From a virus (lineage: Duplodnaviria; Caudoviricetes): 32,672 nucleotides of DNA. The number at the start of each line of letters is the position of its first letter. Positions within the stretch are counted from its first letter, which is position 1. Location: positions 1 through 32,672 of IMG/VR virus record IMGVR_UViG_3300029930_000007, one strand, 5' to 3'. The notes below the pieces were generated by a model. It was not told the origin of the DNA. It did no database searches and saw nothing but the letters and a program-made list of their open reading frames with translations. Below, piece after piece: positions 1,485 to 14,712 of this stretch. Both the position numbers and the translations under genes were made by a program.

Positions 1485-3452
1485 TCAGTTCTTTGCCAAC
1501 CCGTAACGGCGGTGTGCTCCAACTTCTGCGTTCAAAGGTATACCCGGCATGTAGCGCGGCTCCATAGTCATCTGCGCCAAAACCCAAGTTTTAGCGTCTT
1601 CCACCTCTGCGTCTGGCACAACACACAACAACTCATCGTGCACCGTGCCAACCACCGGATACCGCTGTGCAACCCGCAGCATCCCATCTGTCATCACCAC
1701 TCGCGCAGTTCCCTGCACAATGTTGTTGGTGATCTTGCCTGCGTACAGCTTGGTCGGCTTCTCGCCTTCGTTGCCGTACACCCAACTATCTTTTTCCTTG
1801 CGTAGATTGGGGTACTTGATCGACATGCCTGACGGCAGCACGATCTCCCCTTGACGGAAGGTAACGCATTTATACACAACTTCTTCGCCGCCGACAAGAG
1901 ACCGTATCAGCAATTGTTCGCACGCTCCCCAGAACGCCACCACAGGCCACGCCGTTTGCCTATAGATATCTATGATGCGCTTGGCTGCAACACAGTGCTC
2001 CAACAAAGCTTGGTCTGAGTAAGTGCTGGGAATGCCGAGCACCTTGTCGTCCACACCCTTCTGCTCTACAAACCGCTGCACAAACTCTTTGTTTACGCCC
2101 AACAACTTGCCAAACTCTTTGCTGTACCGCATGGGCGGTGCTCCGAGAAAGCCTGTCAGAAGCTGTTGAGCAAAGCTGTGCCATCCCAGCCCGTAGCCGC
2201 ACCCAAGTAGCGCCGATTTAGCCGACTGTCGCAGATCAGGGTGGCTCTCTTTGGTCATACCGGGGATACCGAACATCTGCGCCCCGAACTGGGCGTAAGC
2301 GTCTTGTCCTGAGCGGAAGATATCCAACAAGTCTTGGTAGTCTGCAAACCACGCCAGCACACGCGGCTCGATCTGCGACAAGTCACCCACCACAAGCTGA
2401 TACCCCGGCGGGGCCATGATGGCTTTGCGCAGGAAGCTGCCGCGCTTTAAGTTCTGCATGTTGATGGCGCTGCCTTTGGCAGCAGCCCATCGGCCAGACT
2501 TAGCACCGTAATAACTAAGTGGTACAGGCAGTTTGCCGCGCTGAGAGATGTCCAGAAACCGTTGCGCCCGGGTGCGCTCGGTGGTTGACTTGACCTTGAG
2601 TCTTGCCTCGCACAGCGCCGCCACATCCTCGTTGTCCCCGTTGAGCAGCGCTTGAAACATGGCATCGTTCTTAGCCAGCGCCAGCGTCTCTTTGCCTGTT
2701 GTCTTGCTGATCTTTGTGGGCGGTGTGATGCTCATGCTGCGCAGGATTTCCGCAAAGCGTTGATTGGATGCAAGCTCGGCTTCTTCTACGCCAACACGTT
2801 TGAGCAAACTTTCCCGGTGTCGCCCCTCTTCGACCAGCGCTTCTATCAACATCTTCTGATCAAGCTCCAGCACAGGGCGGGTGTACATCTTGAGCGTCAT
2901 GTCGATGAGGCGAAGCTCCTTGGCTGGGTAGTCGACAACCAACCGCTCGAAAATCCGTTCGCAGAGATATACGTCGTGCTTGCAGTAGGCCGCAAGTTCA
3001 GATTCCACAGCCTCGTCCAACTTGGTAAGGCCATCTGTGCTGTGGACAGCTTTTCCTTTCTCCGGTAGTTGAAAGTCTGCGGCGAGCTTTGCGAGGGAAT
3101 TACCAACCTCCACGCCGCGTAGAGCGCGTGCCATTGATAGGGTGTCGAAGATGAACGCGGGACGTGCGTTGTATCGCCACTCCAGAATGGATACATCGAA
3201 CTGTGCATTATGCGCAAGCACTGCGGTTCGTCCCCAGTCGATTCCAGAAAAGTACTCAGATAGGTCTGATCCTCCAACCCATCTAATTGGTTCGTCGCTT
3301 CCGTATAGATGTGTGCAAACTCCAAAGCAAGTGAATCTCTCGTCACGGATGTACTCCTCTGTCGTCATCTTTGAGAGCGTGTAGCCCTTGCTGTCCCATC
3401 TGGTTTCAAAGTCTATTGTCAGTATCTGATCGTACGGTTTTGCCAAGCTCAT
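1485..3452 (-). CDS. polA: DNA polymerase family A with 3'-5' exonuclease domain
   Basis: Exo I IDFET, Exo II HNAQFD, Exo III YCKHD; motif A DLSQIEPR, motif B RQSAKSALLGCGYG, motif C VHDE. Confidence 0.95.
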   Translation of the reverse strand: MSLAKPYDQILTIDFETRWDSKGYTLSKMTTEEYIRDERFTCFGVCTHLYGSDEPIRWVGGSDLSEYFSGIDWGRTAVLAHNAQFDVSILEWRYNARPAFIFDTLSMARALRGVEVGNSLAKLAADFQLPEKGKAVHSTDGLTKLDEAVESELAAYCKHDVYLCERIFERLVVDYPAKELRLIDMTLKMYTRPVLELDQKMLIEALVEEGRHRESLLKRVGVEEAELASNQRFAEILRSMSITPPTKISKTTGKETLALAKNDAMFQALLNGDNEDVAALCEARLKVKSTTERTRAQRFLDISQRGKLPVPLSYYGAKSGRWAAAKGSAINMQNLKRGSFLRKAIMAPPGYQLVVGDLSQIEPRVLAWFADYQDLLDIFRSGQDAYAQFGAQMFGIPGMTKESHPDLRQSAKSALLGCGYGLGWHSFAQQLLTGFLGAPPMRYSKEFGKLLGVNKEFVQRFVEQKGVDDKVLGIPSTYSDQALLEHCVAAKRIIDIYRQTAWPVVAFWGACEQLLIRSLVGGEEVVYKCVTFRQGEIVLPSGMSIKYPNLRKEKDSWVYGNEGEKPTKLYAGKITNNIVQGTARVVMTDGMLRVAQRYPVVGTVHDELLCVVPDAEVEDAKTWVLAQMTMEPRYMPGIPLNAEVGAHRRYGLAKN

Positions 3453-3594: not shown

Positions 3595-3866
3595 TTGAAC
3601 ATCTCCTTGGGCGGTGCATCTTTGGTGTTCAGATACTCAAACACCTCATTGACAGCCAACAGCAGGTTTGAAACTTCCATCTTGTTGCAGTTGACTGACA
3701 CTACATCACGCATGCTGTCTGCATCACCGAAGATCACAATCGCTTTCTCGTCGTTGTCATCGCCGTAGCAGCGGATCAAGTTGTAGATGATGTGCTTGAG
3801 ATGCTCTTTCAAGTCTTCTGGCATGGCGTCTATGCGCTTTGCTATCTCTTCATTCATTTCATCCAT
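3591..3866 (-). CDS. hypothetical protein
   Basis: SD AAGGAG before the ATG; packed between neighbours. Confidence 0.7.
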   Translation of the reverse strand: MDEMNEEIAKRIDAMPEDLKEHLKHIIYNLIRCYGDDNDEKAIVIFGDADSMRDVVSVNCNKMEVSNLLLAVNEVFEYLNTKDAPPKEMFN

Positions 3867-4144
3867 AAAAGCTCCTTGAGTGTATTGAGGTTGCCCTCGT
3901 TGATCACCAGCGCAATCCCACCAGCGGCGCGTATCCGGGCAAGGTGCATCTCTTGCAGCGCGGTTGGTTTATTGTTGCCTGCTTTGGCTTCTACTGCAAT
4001 GAATTTTCCTTGCTTGCAGATTAAAAAATCAGGCACGCCTGAGTTGCCGTAGCCAGACCCGATTGGCATGGCGTAGTAAGCGCCTGCTGCATCCAGCATC
4101 TTGCGAATTTCTTTTTTGACTTTGACTTCTGGTGTGTTTGCCAT
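3854..4144 (-). CDS. VRR-NUC domain nuclease (Holliday junction resolvase-like)
   Basis: PEVKVK...GVPDFL...FIAVEAKAG...PTALQ...GGIALVI pattern. Confidence 0.88.
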   Translation of the reverse strand: MANTPEVKVKKEIRKMLDAAGAYYAMPIGSGYGNSGVPDFLICKQGKFIAVEAKAGNNKPTALQEMHLARIRAAGGIALVINEGNLNTLKELLWMK

Positions 4145-4162
4145 GATGTGTTGGTGTTAGGT

Positions 4163-4310
4163 GAGGGGGGAAAGTAGATTCCGCGCCCCCTCGTTTTCGC
4201 GGTCGAGTGCTGGTGTGGGCTGTCTATTTAAGAAGCCGCGCAACCCACACCGCTGTTCATGGTCGCATCTACTAGGTTTGCATGAACAGCCATGATCAAT
4301 CGCGGCTTCC
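4163..4310 (-). ncRNA. candidate structured RNA with two tandem pseudoknots and a kissing helix
   Basis: Six complementary segment pairs of 5-11 bp fill the intergenic gap; G-U pairs favour the minus strand. Confidence 0.7.
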
Positions 4311-4312
4311 GG

Positions 4313-4423
4313 TTAAAAGGGTGCAGGCTCTGTCGTGTCGTAGACAGAGGGTTGTTTGGGAAAACGCTTGGGGTCCAAGCGTGTAAACGGCCACCACGCT
4401 TCAAGCTCTTTCTGGCTTAACAC
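4313..4423 (-). CDS. small hypothetical protein (36 aa, GTG start)
   Basis: LSQKELEAWWPFTRLDPKRF...EPAPF; start uncertain. Confidence 0.4.
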   Translation of the reverse strand: MLSQKELEAWWPFTRLDPKRFPKQPSVYDTTEPAPF

Positions 4424-4574
4424 GCCGCTGTCTTTTGGGCTTTGGCGTGGTGATCGGGACTTCTTTTGTGTTAAAGCTGTGGTCGTTGAAACAGTGACGG
4501 CGTCTGATGGGTGTTCCATTGTCATCCTTGGTGTGTTTTACTTCAGTTGGCGCTTTGCATAGGGGGCACTTCAC
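4401..4574 (-). CDS. zinc-ribbon protein resembling the NrdR N-terminal domain
   Basis: GTGA-coupled start; KCPLC...IRRRHCFNDHSFNTKE. Confidence 0.65.
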   Translation of the reverse strand: MKCPLCKAPTEVKHTKDDNGTPIRRRHCFNDHSFNTKEVPITTPKPKRQRRVKPERA

Positions 4575-4777
4575 TTTGGCTCCTTGTACGGGAACCCGCC
4601 CCAATCATCAAACAACGGCATGGGGTTACGCTCTCTGGCTTGTATGGCCTCTTCCAGATTTTGGTTGTTTACATACAGCCTGACAAGTTTCAGGATGGCC
4701 TCGCGCTCGGCCTTGACTGCGGCCTCCAGTTCGGAGCGGTAGCACATAGTGTCGTCGTCTTCTTTATTCATCGTCAT
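4571..4777 (-). CDS. hypothetical nin-like region protein
   Basis: LEAAVKAERE motif; overlaps its neighbours. Confidence 0.6.
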   Translation of the reverse strand: MTMNKEDDDTMCYRSELEAAVKAEREAILKLVRLYVNNQNLEEAIQARERNPMPLFDDWGGFPYKEPK

Positions 4778-4919: not shown

Positions 4920-5350
4920 GCCTGCCCCCTTGCTCTGATGGCAGCGGCGCAAGCGATTGCACCTTCTTTCCATGCTGATGCCCCTTGCGTCTGCTCCTCA
5001 CACACCCGCGCACACACCTCCCTCTCAGCCTTGACTGCGGCCTCAAGTCCACTTGGCAGGTGCTCAAGATGGTTTTGCAATTTCCAGTTCATTGCGTCGG
5101 CATAGCCCCTCTTGTATTCCTTGGAATCCTCTATCGTCTTGACTAGCGCCTTGATGTGCGCGTTGACCTTCTCAATCTCTGGCGCGTTGGCAGCAATGAT
5201 GCGCTCACGCTCGGCTGCGACGGCGAGTTGGTAAAAGCGTTCAAGCACATCAGGTGTGGCAAACACCTGAACATCGTTGTCATATGCAGGATGTCGGCGT
5301 GGGATACACCCAGCCTCCCGCGCCATGCGGATGATGTCTTCTTTATCCAT
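4916..5350 (-). CDS. hypothetical nin-like region protein
   Basis: EDIIRMAREAG...AEREVCARVCE...CAAAIRARG; SD AAGGAG. Confidence 0.75.
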   Translation of the reverse strand: MDKEDIIRMAREAGCIPRRHPAYDNDVQVFATPDVLERFYQLAVAAERERIIAANAPEIEKVNAHIKALVKTIEDSKEYKRGYADAMNWKLQNHLEHLPSGLEAAVKAEREVCARVCEEQTQGASAWKEGAIACAAAIRARGQA

Positions 5351-6973: not shown

Positions 6974-7852
6974 TTAGAACGAAAACTTGTCCAAGATGGC
7001 ATCGACGGCCTTCTTGGTATCTTCCCGAACGGCATCGTTTTGACGCAGTTCCTCTGGCGTAACACCGAGCAAGCAATCGCTCAGTTCTTTGCGTGCTGTC
7101 TCAAGCGACTGATCGCCCACGACATTGAGAGCCTTGACCAAGTCGCACAACTCCAGCGCACCATCGACCAGCGAGTCGTGGAAGCGGCGGCGTTTGGTCT
7201 CGCCTTTGACAATGTCTGTGGTCAGTCGGTCAGACATACGCTTCATGTGCTCCCCAAGCCGAGCACGCACATCGGCCATAGCAGCGTCAATGCGCTCGTT
7301 AGCAAGACGCTCCAGCTTGTCGCGCAGTTCTTGCTGCGCTTGGTTGCCGACATCGACCCGGAAGTCACCTGCCACCGGCACAGGCATGTAGTTCACGCGG
7401 AACGAGAACTTGGTCATGATCTCATTGGCAGTCGGGTAGTCCTCACGCTTGAACATGCCGCCGAGCGCCATAGCCTGCGCCGTGATGAGCGAAGGATAGA
7501 TAGCCACGAATGATTTGACCAGAGCAGCGACCTCATCGTCGAACGCATTCATGCGCTCGGCAAACTTCTGGAAGTTCACTGTCGGCAACAGGCGCAGCCC
7601 TGAGTCAGACCACGGCAGGGTGTTGTCGTAAACAAACTGACGAGCGCGGTTGACTGCCTGCTGAATGACATCCAGTTCGGTGCGGCCTGCAAGCAGGTGT
7701 TTGTTCACCCGAGCGGCGTCCTTGGCTGCAGCGTTCTTGTTCTGCACCACTTCGTCGGTGGTTGACTTGTCCAGCTTACGCGCAGTCCAGACAGAGGCGT
7801 TGAACTCCACAAGCATGGAGCAGGTGTCGAGGTTGTAACGAGGTTGTGTCAT
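6974..7852 (-). CDS. helical protein, possibly DUF3150-like, third gene of the vWA/AAA module
   Basis: WTARKLD, TLPWSDSGLRLLP, DYPT..EI..KF motifs; SD AAGGAG. Confidence 0.6.
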   Translation of the reverse strand: MTQPRYNLDTCSMLVEFNASVWTARKLDKSTTDEVVQNKNAAAKDAARVNKHLLAGRTELDVIQQAVNRARQFVYDNTLPWSDSGLRLLPTVNFQKFAERMNAFDDEVAALVKSFVAIYPSLITAQAMALGGMFKREDYPTANEIMTKFSFRVNYMPVPVAGDFRVDVGNQAQQELRDKLERLANERIDAAMADVRARLGEHMKRMSDRLTTDIVKGETKRRRFHDSLVDGALELCDLVKALNVVGDQSLETARKELSDCLLGVTPEELRQNDAVREDTKKAVDAILDKFSF

Positions 7853-7912
7853 GATGCTTCTCCTTAAAGTTGATTGATGTTTGCCTGTTGAGAGGGCAGG
7901 CTCCTCATTGCT

Positions 7913-9034
7913 TTACTTGCTGAAAAAGATTTTGTGTGCAGCCAGCATCTTGCCGAAGCCGTCGATGGTTGCGAACAGCGCTACACGCTGGCTTGATGCC
8001 ACTGTGTTGCAGAAGATGGACTGCATCTCTGCACGCATACGCCACACATACTCGACGATGGCCTCGGCCTCGGCACGATCAGCAGCACGCGAGACGAACT
8101 GGAACACCTGAATAAGCTGTGCTGTCGGGTTGTTGGACAGCGGCGCATTCTTGGGGTCTTTGATGACACGCGCATACTCGCAGATGTCTTTGCCGAACCG
8201 CACGAAGGAGGACATGGCCTGCGCGGTAACAGAGCCGACAGTACCCTCAAGCGCTGCTTCCAGCGTGTCGTCGTCGAGCACACCGAGACCGGCATCAAGG
8301 ATGTCGGATGCAGCAGCAAGCGAGCGCGGCGATGCGTAAGCAAGCTGCACAGCTTTGGGGTTGAAGATGTAGCCGTTGTCCTTGGATTGGTCCTTGCCCT
8401 CAAACTTGCCACCCTTGGCGTAGTCGATGAAGGAGTCCATAACGCGTGGCTCGTTGTTGACGAACGCGATGACCATAGGATTGAGCGCTGCATCGGTAGC
8501 CCACCGGACCCACTCCTCTGCGGTAGGCTTGCGCATCTTGACGAACACGAGACGATTACGCAGGTGCGCTTGGATGCTATCGCCTAGCCCCTCGACGCTA
8601 AGGTTGGTAGCGCAGAAGACGACAGACCCCTCGACGAAGTGGTAGTTGCCAACACGATGCTCGTAGATGACCGGGGCCAGCACATTCTTGATGAACTGCG
8701 GGGCCTTGGCGATCTCATCGAGAAAGCACAGGATAGGTTTGCCACCATTGACGCCGCGCTGGTTGGTGCGGCTGACACCGAAGCGCTCGTTGGGCAACTC
8801 GCGGGAGATGCCGTTCTCGCGGTCAAGGTCAGGCATCCAGACCGAGCCGTCAGACAGTTGCGTGCAGTCGATGGGATCGACTGCGATGTGGTTGGCAAAC
8901 TTGGGGTCGCGTTTGAGCGCGTGGAACAGCGCGGTCTTACCGATGCCGTTCTCGCCCTCGACGATGACAGTGCGCTTGTCACCGATAGCGGTGATGAGAT
9001 TGAGAACTTGGGAGAACGAAAGATATTGAGACAT
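7913..9034 (-). CDS. MoxR-like AAA+ ATPase
   Basis: Walker A GENGIGKT, Walker B CFLDE, sensor ATN, arginine finger LRNR, SPRS. Confidence 0.88.
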   Translation of the reverse strand: MSQYLSFSQVLNLITAIGDKRTVIVEGENGIGKTALFHALKRDPKFANHIAVDPIDCTQLSDGSVWMPDLDRENGISRELPNERFGVSRTNQRGVNGGKPILCFLDEIAKAPQFIKNVLAPVIYEHRVGNYHFVEGSVVFCATNLSVEGLGDSIQAHLRNRLVFVKMRKPTAEEWVRWATDAALNPMVIAFVNNEPRVMDSFIDYAKGGKFEGKDQSKDNGYIFNPKAVQLAYASPRSLAAASDILDAGLGVLDDDTLEAALEGTVGSVTAQAMSSFVRFGKDICEYARVIKDPKNAPLSNNPTAQLIQVFQFVSRAADRAEAEAIVEYVWRMRAEMQSIFCNTVASSQRVALFATIDGFGKMLAAHKIFFSK

Positions 9035-9058
9035 GATTAACACTCCTTGGTTGGTTGA

Positions 9059-10237
9059 TTACAGTTTGATATGCAAGGTTTTGCCGTGTTTGGCAACGAA
9101 CGAGTCGTTGTCCACTACCCCCCAGAGGGACGGCATGGTAGTAGCCGGGTCATCGCAGCCGATGTCACCATCCGATAGCCAGACGATTGCTTTGGCGTCG
9201 ATCTTGTGCTTGACGATGTAGTCCACGACTACCTGCGGCGTAGTGCCACCCCCGCCTTTGGGCTTGAGCAGCGTGGCGATCTGGTCGTAGTCAGTAGCAG
9301 TGAACACTTGGTCACCGCATACGCTCGTGTCCCACCACAGCACACGCACAGCAGCAGGCTTAGTCTGCTGACAGATGGTAGAGACCTCACCGAACAGCAG
9401 CTTGTAGTATGGCCCCATCGAGCCCGAAGTGTCGGCAGCGATGATGATCTCACCGATAGACTCCGTGAAGTGCGAAGGCAAGATGAAACCTGCTGCAAGC
9501 AAGCGCTTGTTGGGCGGTGCAAAGCGAGAGTTGTCGTCACCAGCAGAGACAGACTGTATGAACTCACGCAGCGCAGATACCCAGTCGGTGCTGCGGTCAG
9601 CGGCAAGCCCGAAGATGTCGCTACCGCCGCCGTCTTTGCCAGCGAGTTTACGGGCCAGCATCTGACCCTGTCGGTTGGCATCGTCGATCTGTCTGCTAAG
9701 GTCTTGCTGCTCGTCGAAGGACAAGTCGTCAGCGTCGATGTGCTCATCGAACGGGTTGTCGTCTTTGCCACCCCCACCGCCTTCGTCATCGGCATCGTCA
9801 GGCAAGAGATTGAACACCTGCTGAAACGACATGCCGTTGAACCTAGGGTCAACGAGAATACCCTTCGATGGACGCTCGACGAATGTAAAGCCCGGGTCCA
9901 TCTCCTCGATGAGTCCGTTGATGACATAGTCCTGCGCTTTGTTGGTTTTTCTCGCCCACTTCTTCTTGATGTCTTTGTATAGCACGCAGTGCTTGAGGGC
10001 TACATGGAAGTTCTCGTGAAGCACGAGATACCGCAGTTGTTTGCGGTTAAGTGGCGTGATGAAGTCTGCGCCATAGAGCTTGTCTCTGCCGTTGGTGGCA
10101 GCGGTCGGCAGGTTGTCCGTAACCTCGGACTTACCCATCATGATCACGCCCGACAAGAGGGCGAACTTGGGATGCCTCATGCAGTCGATGTTGGCTGCTT
10201 GAATGCGCTGGTTGAGGGTCATCTTATCGAATGACAT
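9059..10237 (-). CDS. HEXXH metallopeptidase + vWA-like domain protein (DUF2201-type)
   Basis: TAATNG, LHENFHVAL, acidic linker, MIDAS DTSGS, GGGGT, LSDG. Confidence 0.85.
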   Translation of the reverse strand: MSFDKMTLNQRIQAANIDCMRHPKFALLSGVIMMGKSEVTDNLPTAATNGRDKLYGADFITPLNRKQLRYLVLHENFHVALKHCVLYKDIKKKWARKTNKAQDYVINGLIEEMDPGFTFVERPSKGILVDPRFNGMSFQQVFNLLPDDADDEGGGGGKDDNPFDEHIDADDLSFDEQQDLSRQIDDANRQGQMLARKLAGKDGGGSDIFGLAADRSTDWVSALREFIQSVSAGDDNSRFAPPNKRLLAAGFILPSHFTESIGEIIIAADTSGSMGPYYKLLFGEVSTICQQTKPAAVRVLWWDTSVCGDQVFTATDYDQIATLLKPKGGGGTTPQVVVDYIVKHKIDAKAIVWLSDGDIGCDDPATTMPSLWGVVDNDSFVAKHGKTLHIKL

Positions 10238-10265
10238 AGTGCTTCTCCTTTTCTTAGTTTTCACA

Positions 10266-10294
10266 AGTATAGGGGATTGTCTATTGCTAGACAA
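10266..10294 (-). promoter_or_regulatory. sigma70-type promoter overlapped by a palindromic operator candidate
   Basis: Minus strand TTGTCT-17 nt-TATACT; palindrome TTGTCTA-TTGC-TAGACAA at 10277-10294. Confidence 0.65.
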
Positions 10295-10315
10295 CCCCCC
10301 GGGGATACCCTGAGA

Positions 10316-11308
10316 TCAGGGGTTTTCTCTCACAAACACATTGCTGCGAGGATAGTCCTCGTAGTTCATGAACTGTGGCAGTTCAATCCATTTGCTGCGC
10401 TTGTTAAGCTCAAGAACTTCTTGCAACTTGTTCAGGACAGATTTCGATAGATCGTCTGCCGTGACTGTGCGCTCCAGTTCTTCGTACTTGCTGCAGTTTT
10501 CTGGTTTTTGCCAGTAGCTTGACAGTTGAAAGTCGTCTTGCTTGGCTGCTCGTTTGCTGGCGAGCACATTGAACACCTTCTGACACATGGTAAAGAAGTT
10601 GCTGGTCTGCACATCTGTGGGCATCTGGTCTAACTGTAACGCAGCGTCCATCTCCTTGATGTGCTTTTTCGTCTCCCAGTTGGGCACATACCCGCCGAAT
10701 GCGCGGCCAAGCGAATTGCTCAACGCGATCTCGTTGATGAACTCAGGCATGCGAAACGCCGCCAGCATCAAGAACGGCTCCCACCGGGTACGCATCTGTG
10801 CGCGTATAGCCCTGTCGTTTTCGTCAGCGACCTTGCGCCAGTGCCGTGTGTGCCGTGACTTCTCAACGATCAACTTGTCATCAGGCGTGAACCAATAGTC
10901 TGCGCTGAAGTCTTTGCTCGGCTCCTCCATCAGCTTCAAGAAGGGTGTGCAGTATGTGGGAGCAAATACTTTCCTGCCGTCAGTTGCGTACATGTAGCTG
11001 CGTCGTACCAAGACATCACACATAAACTTCTGAGAAGTCGTTGTGTTTACACCTCGGTACAGCCTGCGCTCGTTGCCTTCTGCATCGGGAGCGTACAACC
11101 TGCCCATCGTCGTGCCGTACAGACAGATGTCAAAGTACTGGTCGGGGTTGTCGCTCTCTATGCGGTAGTGAGTAGACCTTGAATCTTTGAGTGGGCGTTG
11201 GTTGTCTGCCCACTTAGCCGAGCGCGGCTTCTTGATGAGTCCCCAATACGCGCGTGCTTGGGCGTAGTTGCTGATTGTTGGTAACAGATGTGTTGAACCT
11301 GAAAACAT
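10316..11308 (-). CDS. hypothetical protein (330 aa)
   Basis: Long ORF with SD AAGGAG. Confidence 0.8.
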   Translation of the reverse strand: MFSGSTHLLPTISNYAQARAYWGLIKKPRSAKWADNQRPLKDSRSTHYRIESDNPDQYFDICLYGTTMGRLYAPDAEGNERRLYRGVNTTTSQKFMCDVLVRRSYMYATDGRKVFAPTYCTPFLKLMEEPSKDFSADYWFTPDDKLIVEKSRHTRHWRKVADENDRAIRAQMRTRWEPFLMLAAFRMPEFINEIALSNSLGRAFGGYVPNWETKKHIKEMDAALQLDQMPTDVQTSNFFTMCQKVFNVLASKRAAKQDDFQLSSYWQKPENCSKYEELERTVTADDLSKSVLNKLQEVLELNKRSKWIELPQFMNYEDYPRSNVFVRENP

Positions 11309-13905: not shown

Positions 13906-14712
13906 TTACTTGATCTGCGAGAGACGACTGCGGCTCTCTTTACGCACACCAATGTGCCCATCTGTGGGCTTAGGTGGCGGTGCTCTGTCTGGCCTGTCTG
14001 ACAGCGCGTCAGGTAGCAGGTAGTACAGCTTCACGCTCGGGTCTATTGCATCCCAAAGGTCTTGCAACTCCTGTTTGAACTCAGGCTTCATGTATGTACG
14101 CCATTCGTAAGACTCAGGCATCTTCGGCGCAGTCTTTGCCTTGAACTCTATCGTGCCCCTCACAGCCCACAATACATACTGATAGCGCTGGAAGAACGCC
14201 ACCAACGGCTGGTAACGCGGCTTGTCCTCTGGCCACGCCGCACCTAACTTGCGCCGGGCGCGGAAGGTCTGCACATTGACGACTTTGATTAAGGGTCTGA
14301 GTTGTTCAGCCACGATTGATAGCCATGCAAGCGCTCGTATCGACTGCCATCGCTTGTGCACAGCCGCGCTTTTCTTGGCGTTCTTGTCTCGGTCGCGCTT
14401 GTCCAGCACAGCTTGCGCGGTTACAGGGTCAACATCTCCATGCTTGACCATCCAGCCTATCTGCGTGGGGGTAAGCTCCTCCAGCCAACGCTTGCGGGGT
14501 TGGCACGATTGGCACAGTTTGGAGATGGTCTCGTAGCGGTGGTTGCCTGCGTAGCCCCATGCCACGGCTTGAGCACGAGTGAGCGTGCGCTTGAAGGCTT
14601 TGATGGGCTTGATCTCTCGGCAACTGGTGCACAAGCCTGCGTCGAAGCCTTGCGCGGGGCGCACAACCCAGTCTTGTCTATTGGCGATTAACAGGTGTGG
14701 TGAGTTTTCCAT
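13906..14712 (-). CDS. hypothetical protein with N-terminal zinc finger
   Basis: CTSC.EIKP...F...CQSC. Confidence 0.7.
   Translation of the reverse strand: MENSPHLLIANRQDWVVRPAQGFDAGLCTSCREIKPIKAFKRTLTRAQAVAWGYAGNHRYETISKLCQSCQPRKRWLEELTPTQIGWMVKHGDVDPVTAQAVLDKRDRDKNAKKSAAVHKRWQSIRALAWLSIVAEQLRPLIKVVNVQTFRARRKLGAAWPEDKPRYQPLVAFFQRYQYVLWAVRGTIEFKAKTAPKMPESYEWRTYMKPEFKQELQDLWDAIDPSVKLYYLLPDALSDRPDRAPPPKPTDGHIGVRKESRSRLSQIK

Follow-up and report, generated by a model that had tools for sequence, protein, structure and literature searches.

A phage-encoded intergenic RNA with three crossing helices and an apparently new fold

An intergenic RNA of about 150 nucleotides, folded by three crossing helices, is encoded by a family of uncultured phages. 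The RNA was found in a stretch of phage DNA of 32,672 nucleotides, referred to below as the window, where it occupies positions 4163-4310 of the minus strand (148 nt; the family median is 150 nt). The window is part of a phage with a terminase, an SU10-type portal, a capsid, a family A polymerase and a PD-(D/E)XK nuclease. Judged from comparison of sequences, the RNA has six helices and an extra pair, a core and an optional helix P1; it is present in a single copy, starts at the stop codon of the upstream gene, is independent of what lies downstream and has been gained or lost repeatedly. The fold appears to be new and is absent from Rfam. The newness refers to the fold, and the function is inferred: it is tentatively proposed that the RNA is an optional RNA gene of its own, which would be co-transcribed, resist nucleases and act in trans as a decoy for a host protein. 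The natural covariation of this compact RNA is unusually clear, and the molecule is small enough to be made and tested directly. Whichever of the leading outcomes proves true would be a novelty, be it a phage decoy RNA of novel fold, a naturally occurring exonuclease-resistant RNA in bacteria or a ribozyme class of its own.

Fold of the RNA in the window

The RNA lies in a gap of 168 nt on the minus strand, between a stop codon at 4313-4315 and the start codon of the next gene at 4144. Read 5' to 3' along this strand, the fold begins with the 5' strand of P1 (4301-4310), the partner of which is 4231-4240. The P1-P2 joiner (4291-4300) is a loop that crosses PK1, and its U at 4295 is kept in at least 90% of the rows of alignment A3. 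The 5' strand of P2 (4281-4290, partner 4252-4261) is followed by a segment (4274-4280) that comprises an internal-loop strand, C4276 and the C-U that opens a YUNR motif, and then by the kissing strand of the P2 loop (4267-4273). G4266, the other internal-loop strand and the P2 3' strand make up 4252-4266. The 5' strand of PK1 (4241-4251) runs uninterrupted into the P2 3' strand on one side and the P1 3' strand (4231-4240) on the other, and its partner is 4212-4222. The second pseudoknot is formed by the P3 5' strand (4198-4202, partner 4181-4185), by a continuous segment (4181-4192) made of the PK2 5' strand (4186-4192) and the P3 3' strand, and by the PK2 3' strand (4163-4169), with which the fold ends. 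The segment 4173-4180, containing the invariant A4180 and the partner of the kissing strand (4173-4179), precedes this last strand.

The original prediction placed six helices on non-overlapping bases. All of them are present on the minus strand: P1 (10 bp), P2 (10 bp, perfect), PK1 (11 bp), P3 (5 bp), PK2 (7 bp) and the kissing helix (7 bp). Greedy packing of non-overlapping helices yields 50 bp with three helices of at least 10 bp, which exceeds all 400 dinucleotide shuffles (mean 30.7 bp, maximum 43; 0/400 reach 50), none of which has more than one helix of that length. The plus strand of the same stretch packs into 38 bp. Two G-U pairs, 4310-4231 and 4243-4220, were said to fit the minus strand only, and the plus strand indeed gives A-C at both. 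Nested folding alone is only moderately significant (z of -2.62, with 2 of 200 shuffles as good).

Beyond the six helices, C4276 pairs with G4266 and closes the kissing loop; this is a standard pair in 177/177 members. The adjacent positions 4277 and 4265 are paired in most members and are A-C in the window. The kissing loop is opened in 151/177 members by the YUNR motif, a U-turn typical of kissing loops. P2, PK1 and P1 would be stacked into one rod, on the tip of which the 3' pseudoknot would be docked. The P1 and PK1 stems are near a full helical turn in many members, which raises questions of folding order and threading. A ribosome at the upstream stop codon would be expected to cover the 5' strand of P1.

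Covariation, core and periphery

Loci were collected through proteins, 80 by the VRR-NUC-like gene, 80 by the polymerase and 23, 4 and 14 by three other genes, and the rest were found via sequence patterns. The sequence of the window RNA alone matches 37 of the 80 VRR-gene loci, one of which is identical to the window. The iterated profile has a match in 140/279 loci, and the final profile gives at least 301 hits on redundant loci and at least 177 distinct full-length sequences, all of them from uncultured phages. The effective size of the family after weighting these 177 is about 71, and the mean pairwise identity of 53 representatives is 57%. Among the pattern matches, 42/153 have no exactly complementary upstream kissing strand; these are mostly due to chance, and a few are true members with one mismatch (e.g. 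L140). Five of 29 further pattern loci without a model match, and 15 of the first 100 metagenome loci without a strong match to model R1, were likewise rejected as chance.

Covariation in homologues had been put forward as a check of the fold. A sequence-only MAFFT alignment was made of 45 of the 53 representatives, the other 8 being omitted for odd length or parsing. In these 45 rows the kissing helix is paired in 315/315 cells with 50 double-sided changes, PK2 is paired in 98.7% and P3 in 88.9% of cells, no shuffle matches the covariation score, and registers slid from the true one drop to 41-51% paired. In an alignment of 61 rows fitted to P2, PK1 and PK2 only, the kissing helix is paired in 98.1%, P3 in 90.5% and the two loop-closing pairs in 95.1% of cells. 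Across all 177 members the kissing helix has seven Watson-Crick pairs in 164, one G-U pair in 1 and six pairs in 12. Column by column, covariation is strongest at seven standard pairs that belong to P3, the kissing helix and P2, and PK1 comes next. Base pairing between the GYGA strand and the 3' tail is absent from the top covarying pairs and was dropped. A correlation between the lengths of P2 and the linker was set aside because parsing errors would produce such a correlation.

P1 and PK1 are paired in just 52% and 46% of cells of the MAFFT alignment, which reflects poor alignment. Since these two helices align badly by sequence, they were tested in each sequence against its own shuffles. 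A search in every representative for a PK1 directly continuous with P1 gave a mean score of 47.0, compared with 26.4 in shuffles (sd 5.4, maximum 43), and 48/50 representatives beat all 10 of their shuffles; the exceptions are L178 and L112 or another representative. The median lengths are 9 bp for P1 and 11 bp for PK1.

The first pseudoknot is not kept throughout the family. P1 is absent in L178, L304, L320, L326, L367 and L523. In L304, L326, L367 and L523 PK1 is a plain hairpin, in L320 it takes the form of a short tetraloop hairpin and in L178 PK1 is gone together with P1. Because P1 and PK1 are reduced or lost in these members, the core deduced from the comparison is the P2 kissing hairpin together with the P3/PK2 pseudoknot, and the first pseudoknot is optional. 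P3 and PK2 are 5 and 7 bp long in the main group, and divergent members have a shorter PK2. L159, L186, L122 and L189 carry an additional hairpin of about 25 nt between P2 and PK1, and in L087 the PK2 end is partly duplicated after the RNA, ahead of the next start codon. The natural short variants (115-140 nt, without P1), together with the matched empty sites described below, are ready controls for experiments.

The outer helices are free in sequence and the junction is fixed. The unvarying letters lie together at the meeting point of the kissing helix, P3 and PK2: they are C4275, U4274, the U4267-A4179 pair, A4180, C4185 and the pairs between G4186-4188 and C4167-4169. The three G-C pairs at the P3/PK2 junction do not vary in the alignments. 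This invariance is partly built in, as the search patterns and anchor expressions required those letters; the members found through proteins share them, yet these members were still detected by sequence profiles. The unvarying junction could be a protein-binding surface, as the RNA-gene reading would have it, or the invariant bases may merely hold the tertiary fold. A new class of self-cleaving ribozyme, in which a kissing hairpin with a U-turn would dock on an H-type pseudoknot, dropped between genes and cutting polycistronic transcripts, would agree with the size of the RNA, its several pseudoknots, its optional peripheral domain, the small cluster of invariant bases at one junction and its indifference to the neighbouring genes. 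The invariant unpaired bases, however, are few (A4180, with C4275 and U4274 kept in 65/67), none of them is a G, and the sole trace of a ribozyme in the Rfam searches is a twister-sister hit that scores 14 bits where 34 are required and lies on the wrong strand of L542. A ribozyme is considered unlikely.

Genomic setting and proposed function

On its upstream side the RNA is placed like a gene. An open reading frame of at least 40 codons stops 20-60 nt before the kissing strand in 170/177 members, and the upstream stop lies within -10 to +12 of the start of P1 in 72/85, with many unrelated genes upstream. In the window, the stop codon of a small ORF ending in a PAPF motif (4313-4525, minus strand) abuts P1. 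The true start of this ORF may lie near 4423, and its beginning is overlapped by an ORF resembling an NrdR-like zinc ribbon (4401-4574, minus strand; Pfam E of 9e-05, below the cut-off). No promoter scoring at least 10/12 was found in the 75 nt upstream of the RNA in the 177 members, and the RNA would be co-transcribed with the upstream genes. Tight packing at stop codons is also expected from genome compaction. The frame is open back to the upstream stop in 10/153 members, with the three phases about equal, and a stimulator of frameshifting or readthrough was rejected.

The downstream side is free. The next gene is led by an SD-like motif in 125 of the 177 members and has no such motif, by a crude test, in 31; a sigma-70-type promoter follows the RNA in 12, a convergent gene end in 5 and another arrangement in 2, and 2 sequences are too short. 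(Promoters and terminators here and below are predictions from consensus matches.) The RNA thus directly precedes a co-oriented gene in 156/177 members, at a median spacing of 21 nt in the 94 measured, and a cis effect on the following gene is possible in these. In the window, the next gene (3854-4144, minus strand) had been called a VRR-NUC nuclease. It can be assigned to the VRR-NUC/Hjc-like nucleases only through weak Pfam scores below the cut-off (E 0.026 and 0.0044) and through a match to PHROG 93 'endonuclease' with an E of 2e-15. Beyond it lies the family A DNA polymerase (1485-3452, minus strand), at most 32% identical to polymerases of cultured phages. An 869-aa ORF of L241 (7398-10007) with a VRR-NUC-like start and a DNA polymerase-like end is apparently a fusion of the two.

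It had also been suggested that the RNA is a riboswitch-like element or a structure-driven initiator for the nuclease and polymerase genes. The start codon at 4144 is indeed separated from PK2 by an A/C-rich spacer of 18 nt (4145-4162, minus strand) without an SD-like motif, as predicted, and the next gene is VRR-NUC-like in 61/94 members. Most of the other leaders listed for the window have an SD-like motif, and the SD-less state is not conserved in the family. As a property of the family, control of the nuclease and polymerase genes by a 5' leader, whether a riboswitch, a protein-bound operator like that of gp32 or a structure-driven initiator, is not supported and is regarded as very improbable. 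In seventeen members the position of the RNA rules out a role as leader of the next gene, because a promoter intervenes (12) or the gene is convergent (5). In 125 members the SD lies outside the fold, no alternative fold that would sequester the SD and no common terminator were seen, and the next gene is another one in 33/94. In L330 and L501 a predicted promoter lies 6-12 nt before the start codon of the nuclease, so that the message would be leaderless and the RNA excluded from it. Apparent leaderless sigma-70-type promoters of VRR-NUC-like genes are seen in several low-GC members (L330:1070-1104; L501:2501-2541; L507; L517). Three divergent lineages share a similar short palindrome between the RNA and the promoter that follows it (L330:1030-1047, L511 near 3230 and L519 near 2595); it may serve as a repressor site or form a hairpin. 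P3 and PK2 together give the 12 bp of a tRNA-like stack in the main group, but the spacer tail reads ACCA in only 31/157 members, and a tRNA mimic with an encoded CCA was set aside.

A role in transcription, as a terminator or pause site tuned by the pseudoknot or as a processive antiterminator, the class to which EAR and HK022 put belong, could be read from the G-C stem of PK2 followed by U-rich tails in L501, L502, L504 and L505, and from the site itself, a boundary at which some relatives have a terminator and a promoter. One such relative without the RNA is L074, where inspection of this junction by eye shows what look like a terminator hairpin and a promoter (positions 1-193). Most members, however, have no U tract and a promoter-less gene next, so termination cannot be strong; an antiterminator would have no target in the 5 members at operon ends, and L519 has a separate terminator. 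Such a role is hardly to be expected.

At least two groups of phages, which differ in their replication genes, have the RNA. In the second group, which has a primase-helicase, the stop codon of the helicase lies on the opposite strand at the PK2 end; the RNA closes the rightward operon in L084 and sits in the opposite operon in L542. Another phage of this group has a tRNA gene (L533:4544-4616, minus strand). Taken together, the placements suggest that the RNA has to be carried on a transcript, whatever gene, if any, comes next.

Whole-record searches found one copy in each of 18/18 records known to hold the RNA and none in 12 relatives, 7 of which are at least 90% complete; the broader model R2 has no match in 9 negative genomes. 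On a polymerase tree of 99 tips, presence of the RNA requires 12 changes, and starred branches force 8 of these. Within the main group the RNA is carried by the deepest branches, a sign of repeated loss if the root, placed at the midpoint only, is right. In a relative about 85% identical, 4147 is joined directly to 4313, and L067 and L069 are without the whole element present in L124. An insertion element or MITE was rejected: the RNA is single-copy and the joint of the empty site has no letters common to both sides, nor was a target duplication seen in the comparison of L124 with L067. Outside the uncultured phages, a pattern scan of GTDB gave one match, in a coding sequence and with the other helices missing, blastn against cultured phages gave nothing useful, and R2 has no match in 32-kb stretches of Rhizobium phage RHph_TM3_14A and Pseudomonas phage KPP25.

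The best co-occurring candidate for a partner is an upstream module of DUF3150, AAA ATPase and metallopeptidase-VWA (DUF2201) genes (6974-10294, minus strand, in the window). The RNA and the module co-occur in 11 of 13 against 0 of 9 genomes; among redundant loci, the RNA is present in 36/36 of those with the AAA module and the VRR gene and missing in 17/18 of those with a peptidase module. The link is not one of whole-genome lineage, as it takes 5 changes on the trees of terminase, portal and capsid, much as shuffles do, and a distantly related AAA-VWA pair lies upstream of the RNA in L084. The RNA might on these grounds be a subunit or substrate of the AAA+/VWA module. There are exceptions both ways, for which an obligatory partner was dropped and which also count against the RNA-gene reading. 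The RNA is present in the complete genome G011, which has no AAA module; none was found within 5.6-7.4 kb upstream in L201, L231, L239 and L241, and L538 and L541 have an AAA-VWA operon with no RNA within 7 kb. Five fragmentary records yielded neither the AAA nor the peptidase genes, which carries little weight. The pattern would look no different if RNA and module were physically linked within a single exchanged block. The association is attributed to linkage or a shared host rather than to partnership, and a role within the module is most improbable.

Alternative modules occupy the early region of these phages: AAA/VWA/DUF3150 (window 6974-11308), an M28 peptidase with proteins of 322 and 480 aa and apparently a third (compare L448:5126-9340 and L434:10788-12227), exchanged across terminase, portal and capsid lineages. 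The window also contains a segment (5276-5342) with a very high summed contig depth and many loose ends in all three runs examined, which consist of contigs and two of which are marked as probable DNA; it may be a motif common to many small phage ORFs that serves as a recombination anchor.

The same co-occurrence, 11/13 against 0/9 genomes, would fit a stability element acting in cis, in which the double-locked 3' pseudoknot stops 3'-to-5' exonucleases and protects the upstream early mRNA; in members with genes behind it, such a pseudoknot would in addition impede the scanning of RNase E into these genes. Such an element would fit the upstream stop that adjoins the RNA in 170/177 members with a free downstream side, the 5 members in which the RNA closes the operon and the location of the conserved part in the 3' module. 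It is less easily reconciled with other observations. L519 has an intrinsic terminator hairpin directly behind the RNA, followed by a promoter, so that a 3' barrier would be redundant there; a generic barrier needs no invariant letters; the RNA is cleanly lost in close relatives; and the upstream genes vary widely, with the operon switched in L542. A cis stability element is a real but rather unlikely possibility.

The reading of the RNA as an accessory gene of its own is preferred, if tentatively, because of its gene-like placement, its free downstream context, the accessory pattern of gain and loss and the fixed junction amid variable outer helices. In L542, the strand that encodes the RNA also encodes the Betaproteobacteria-1 sRNA some 530 nt upstream of it (14010-14126, minus strand; RF02932, 93 bits); this neighbour was counted toward the RNA-gene reading and is also a weak hint of the host group. 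According to this proposal, host nucleases would trim the transcript down to the fold, which would survive mRNA decay as a nuclease-resistant rod of 150 nt and serve as a trans-acting decoy for a host protein, the target possibly being a protein of host defence or RNA decay.

Comparison with known RNAs

The absence of a known family, which the original prediction left to an Rfam search, was confirmed, and the fold on the mRNA strand is uncatalogued. With Rfam 15 the window has no match at the gathering threshold and none at E of 10 or below for 3900-4600; nine loci holding diverse members have none at E of 1 or below; and 26 further loci have none at the gathering threshold on the RNA, with weak sub-threshold hits in L542 only. 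ARAGORN finds no tRNA or tmRNA gene in 10/10 sources. The motifs of the study that reported ROOL with three pseudoknots are said to be in Rfam.

No description of the triple-pseudoknot RNA was found in the literature, where part of it may stand among the unnamed candidates of a screen of IMG/VR intergenic regions, described as 8,495 DNA-virus candidates averaging 67 nt (PMC10690425); the text tables of that paper hold no match to the terms tried. The main text of a preprint on prokaryotic non-coding clusters (10.64898/2026.10.21.760802) has no relevant passage.

GOLLD, ROOL and Betaproteobacteria-1, like the phage RNA, are structured RNAs of phages or prophages without an assigned function, and the last of them occurs beside one member. 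Their Rfam models give no score on the phage RNA, however, and their topology and conserved letters differ. ROOL, with three pseudoknots, is reported to average 581 nt (PMC5737381), and kissing loops are reported in oligomers of orphan phage RNAs (PMC12286853).

The self-cleaving HDV/theta, twister and pistol ribozymes are also compact, multiply pseudoknotted and found in phage intergenic gaps. The phage RNA differs from the known topology of each in strand order and has no Rfam match to them; these three were rejected on the same grounds as hammerhead and hatchet. The dicistrovirus IGR IRES is a triple pseudoknot of similar size, described as active in bacteria through S1 (PMC9458429). The IRES must abut its coding frame, whereas the phage RNA need not, and most members are followed by an SD-led gene.

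The pseudoknot of the T2 gene 32 leader has stems of 5 and 7 bp. The phage RNA likewise contains an H-type pseudoknot with two coaxial stems of 5 and 7 bp, but a 7-bp kissing helix ties the loop of this pseudoknot to a remote hairpin, and a second pseudoknot precedes it. The phage RNA has no long A/U-rich operator, and its next gene varies (VRR-NUC-like in 61/94, another gene in 33/94) or, in 5 members, is absent, and an operator of the gp32 type was rejected. The T4/T2 gene 32 leader is described in PMC3014915 as an H-type pseudoknot of a phage, with its two stems stacked coaxially, in a region of replication genes.

Long coaxial pseudoknots are also found among obstacles to RNase E, which in a bacterial transcript is reported to be impeded in proportion to the length of the coaxial pseudoknot (PMC9943677). 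The obstacles described there shield downstream RNA and need no fixed sequence, whereas the phage RNA has an unvarying junction and also occurs with nothing downstream to protect. For the nuclease resistance proposed here they offer an analogy.

Antitoxin RNAs of type III are described as tandem repeats of about 35 nt that lie beside a toxin gene and are cut by the toxin. The phage RNA, by contrast, is a single copy of 150 nt in 18/18 records with varied neighbours and no adjacent toxin gene seen, so that it was not classed with them. Its likeness to ToxI, CptI and pseudo-ToxI is one of fold: all three are H-type pseudoknot RNAs that bind protein, and pseudo-ToxI is described as a phage-borne RNA decoy against a toxin (PMC5086642), a role of the kind tentatively proposed here for the phage RNA.
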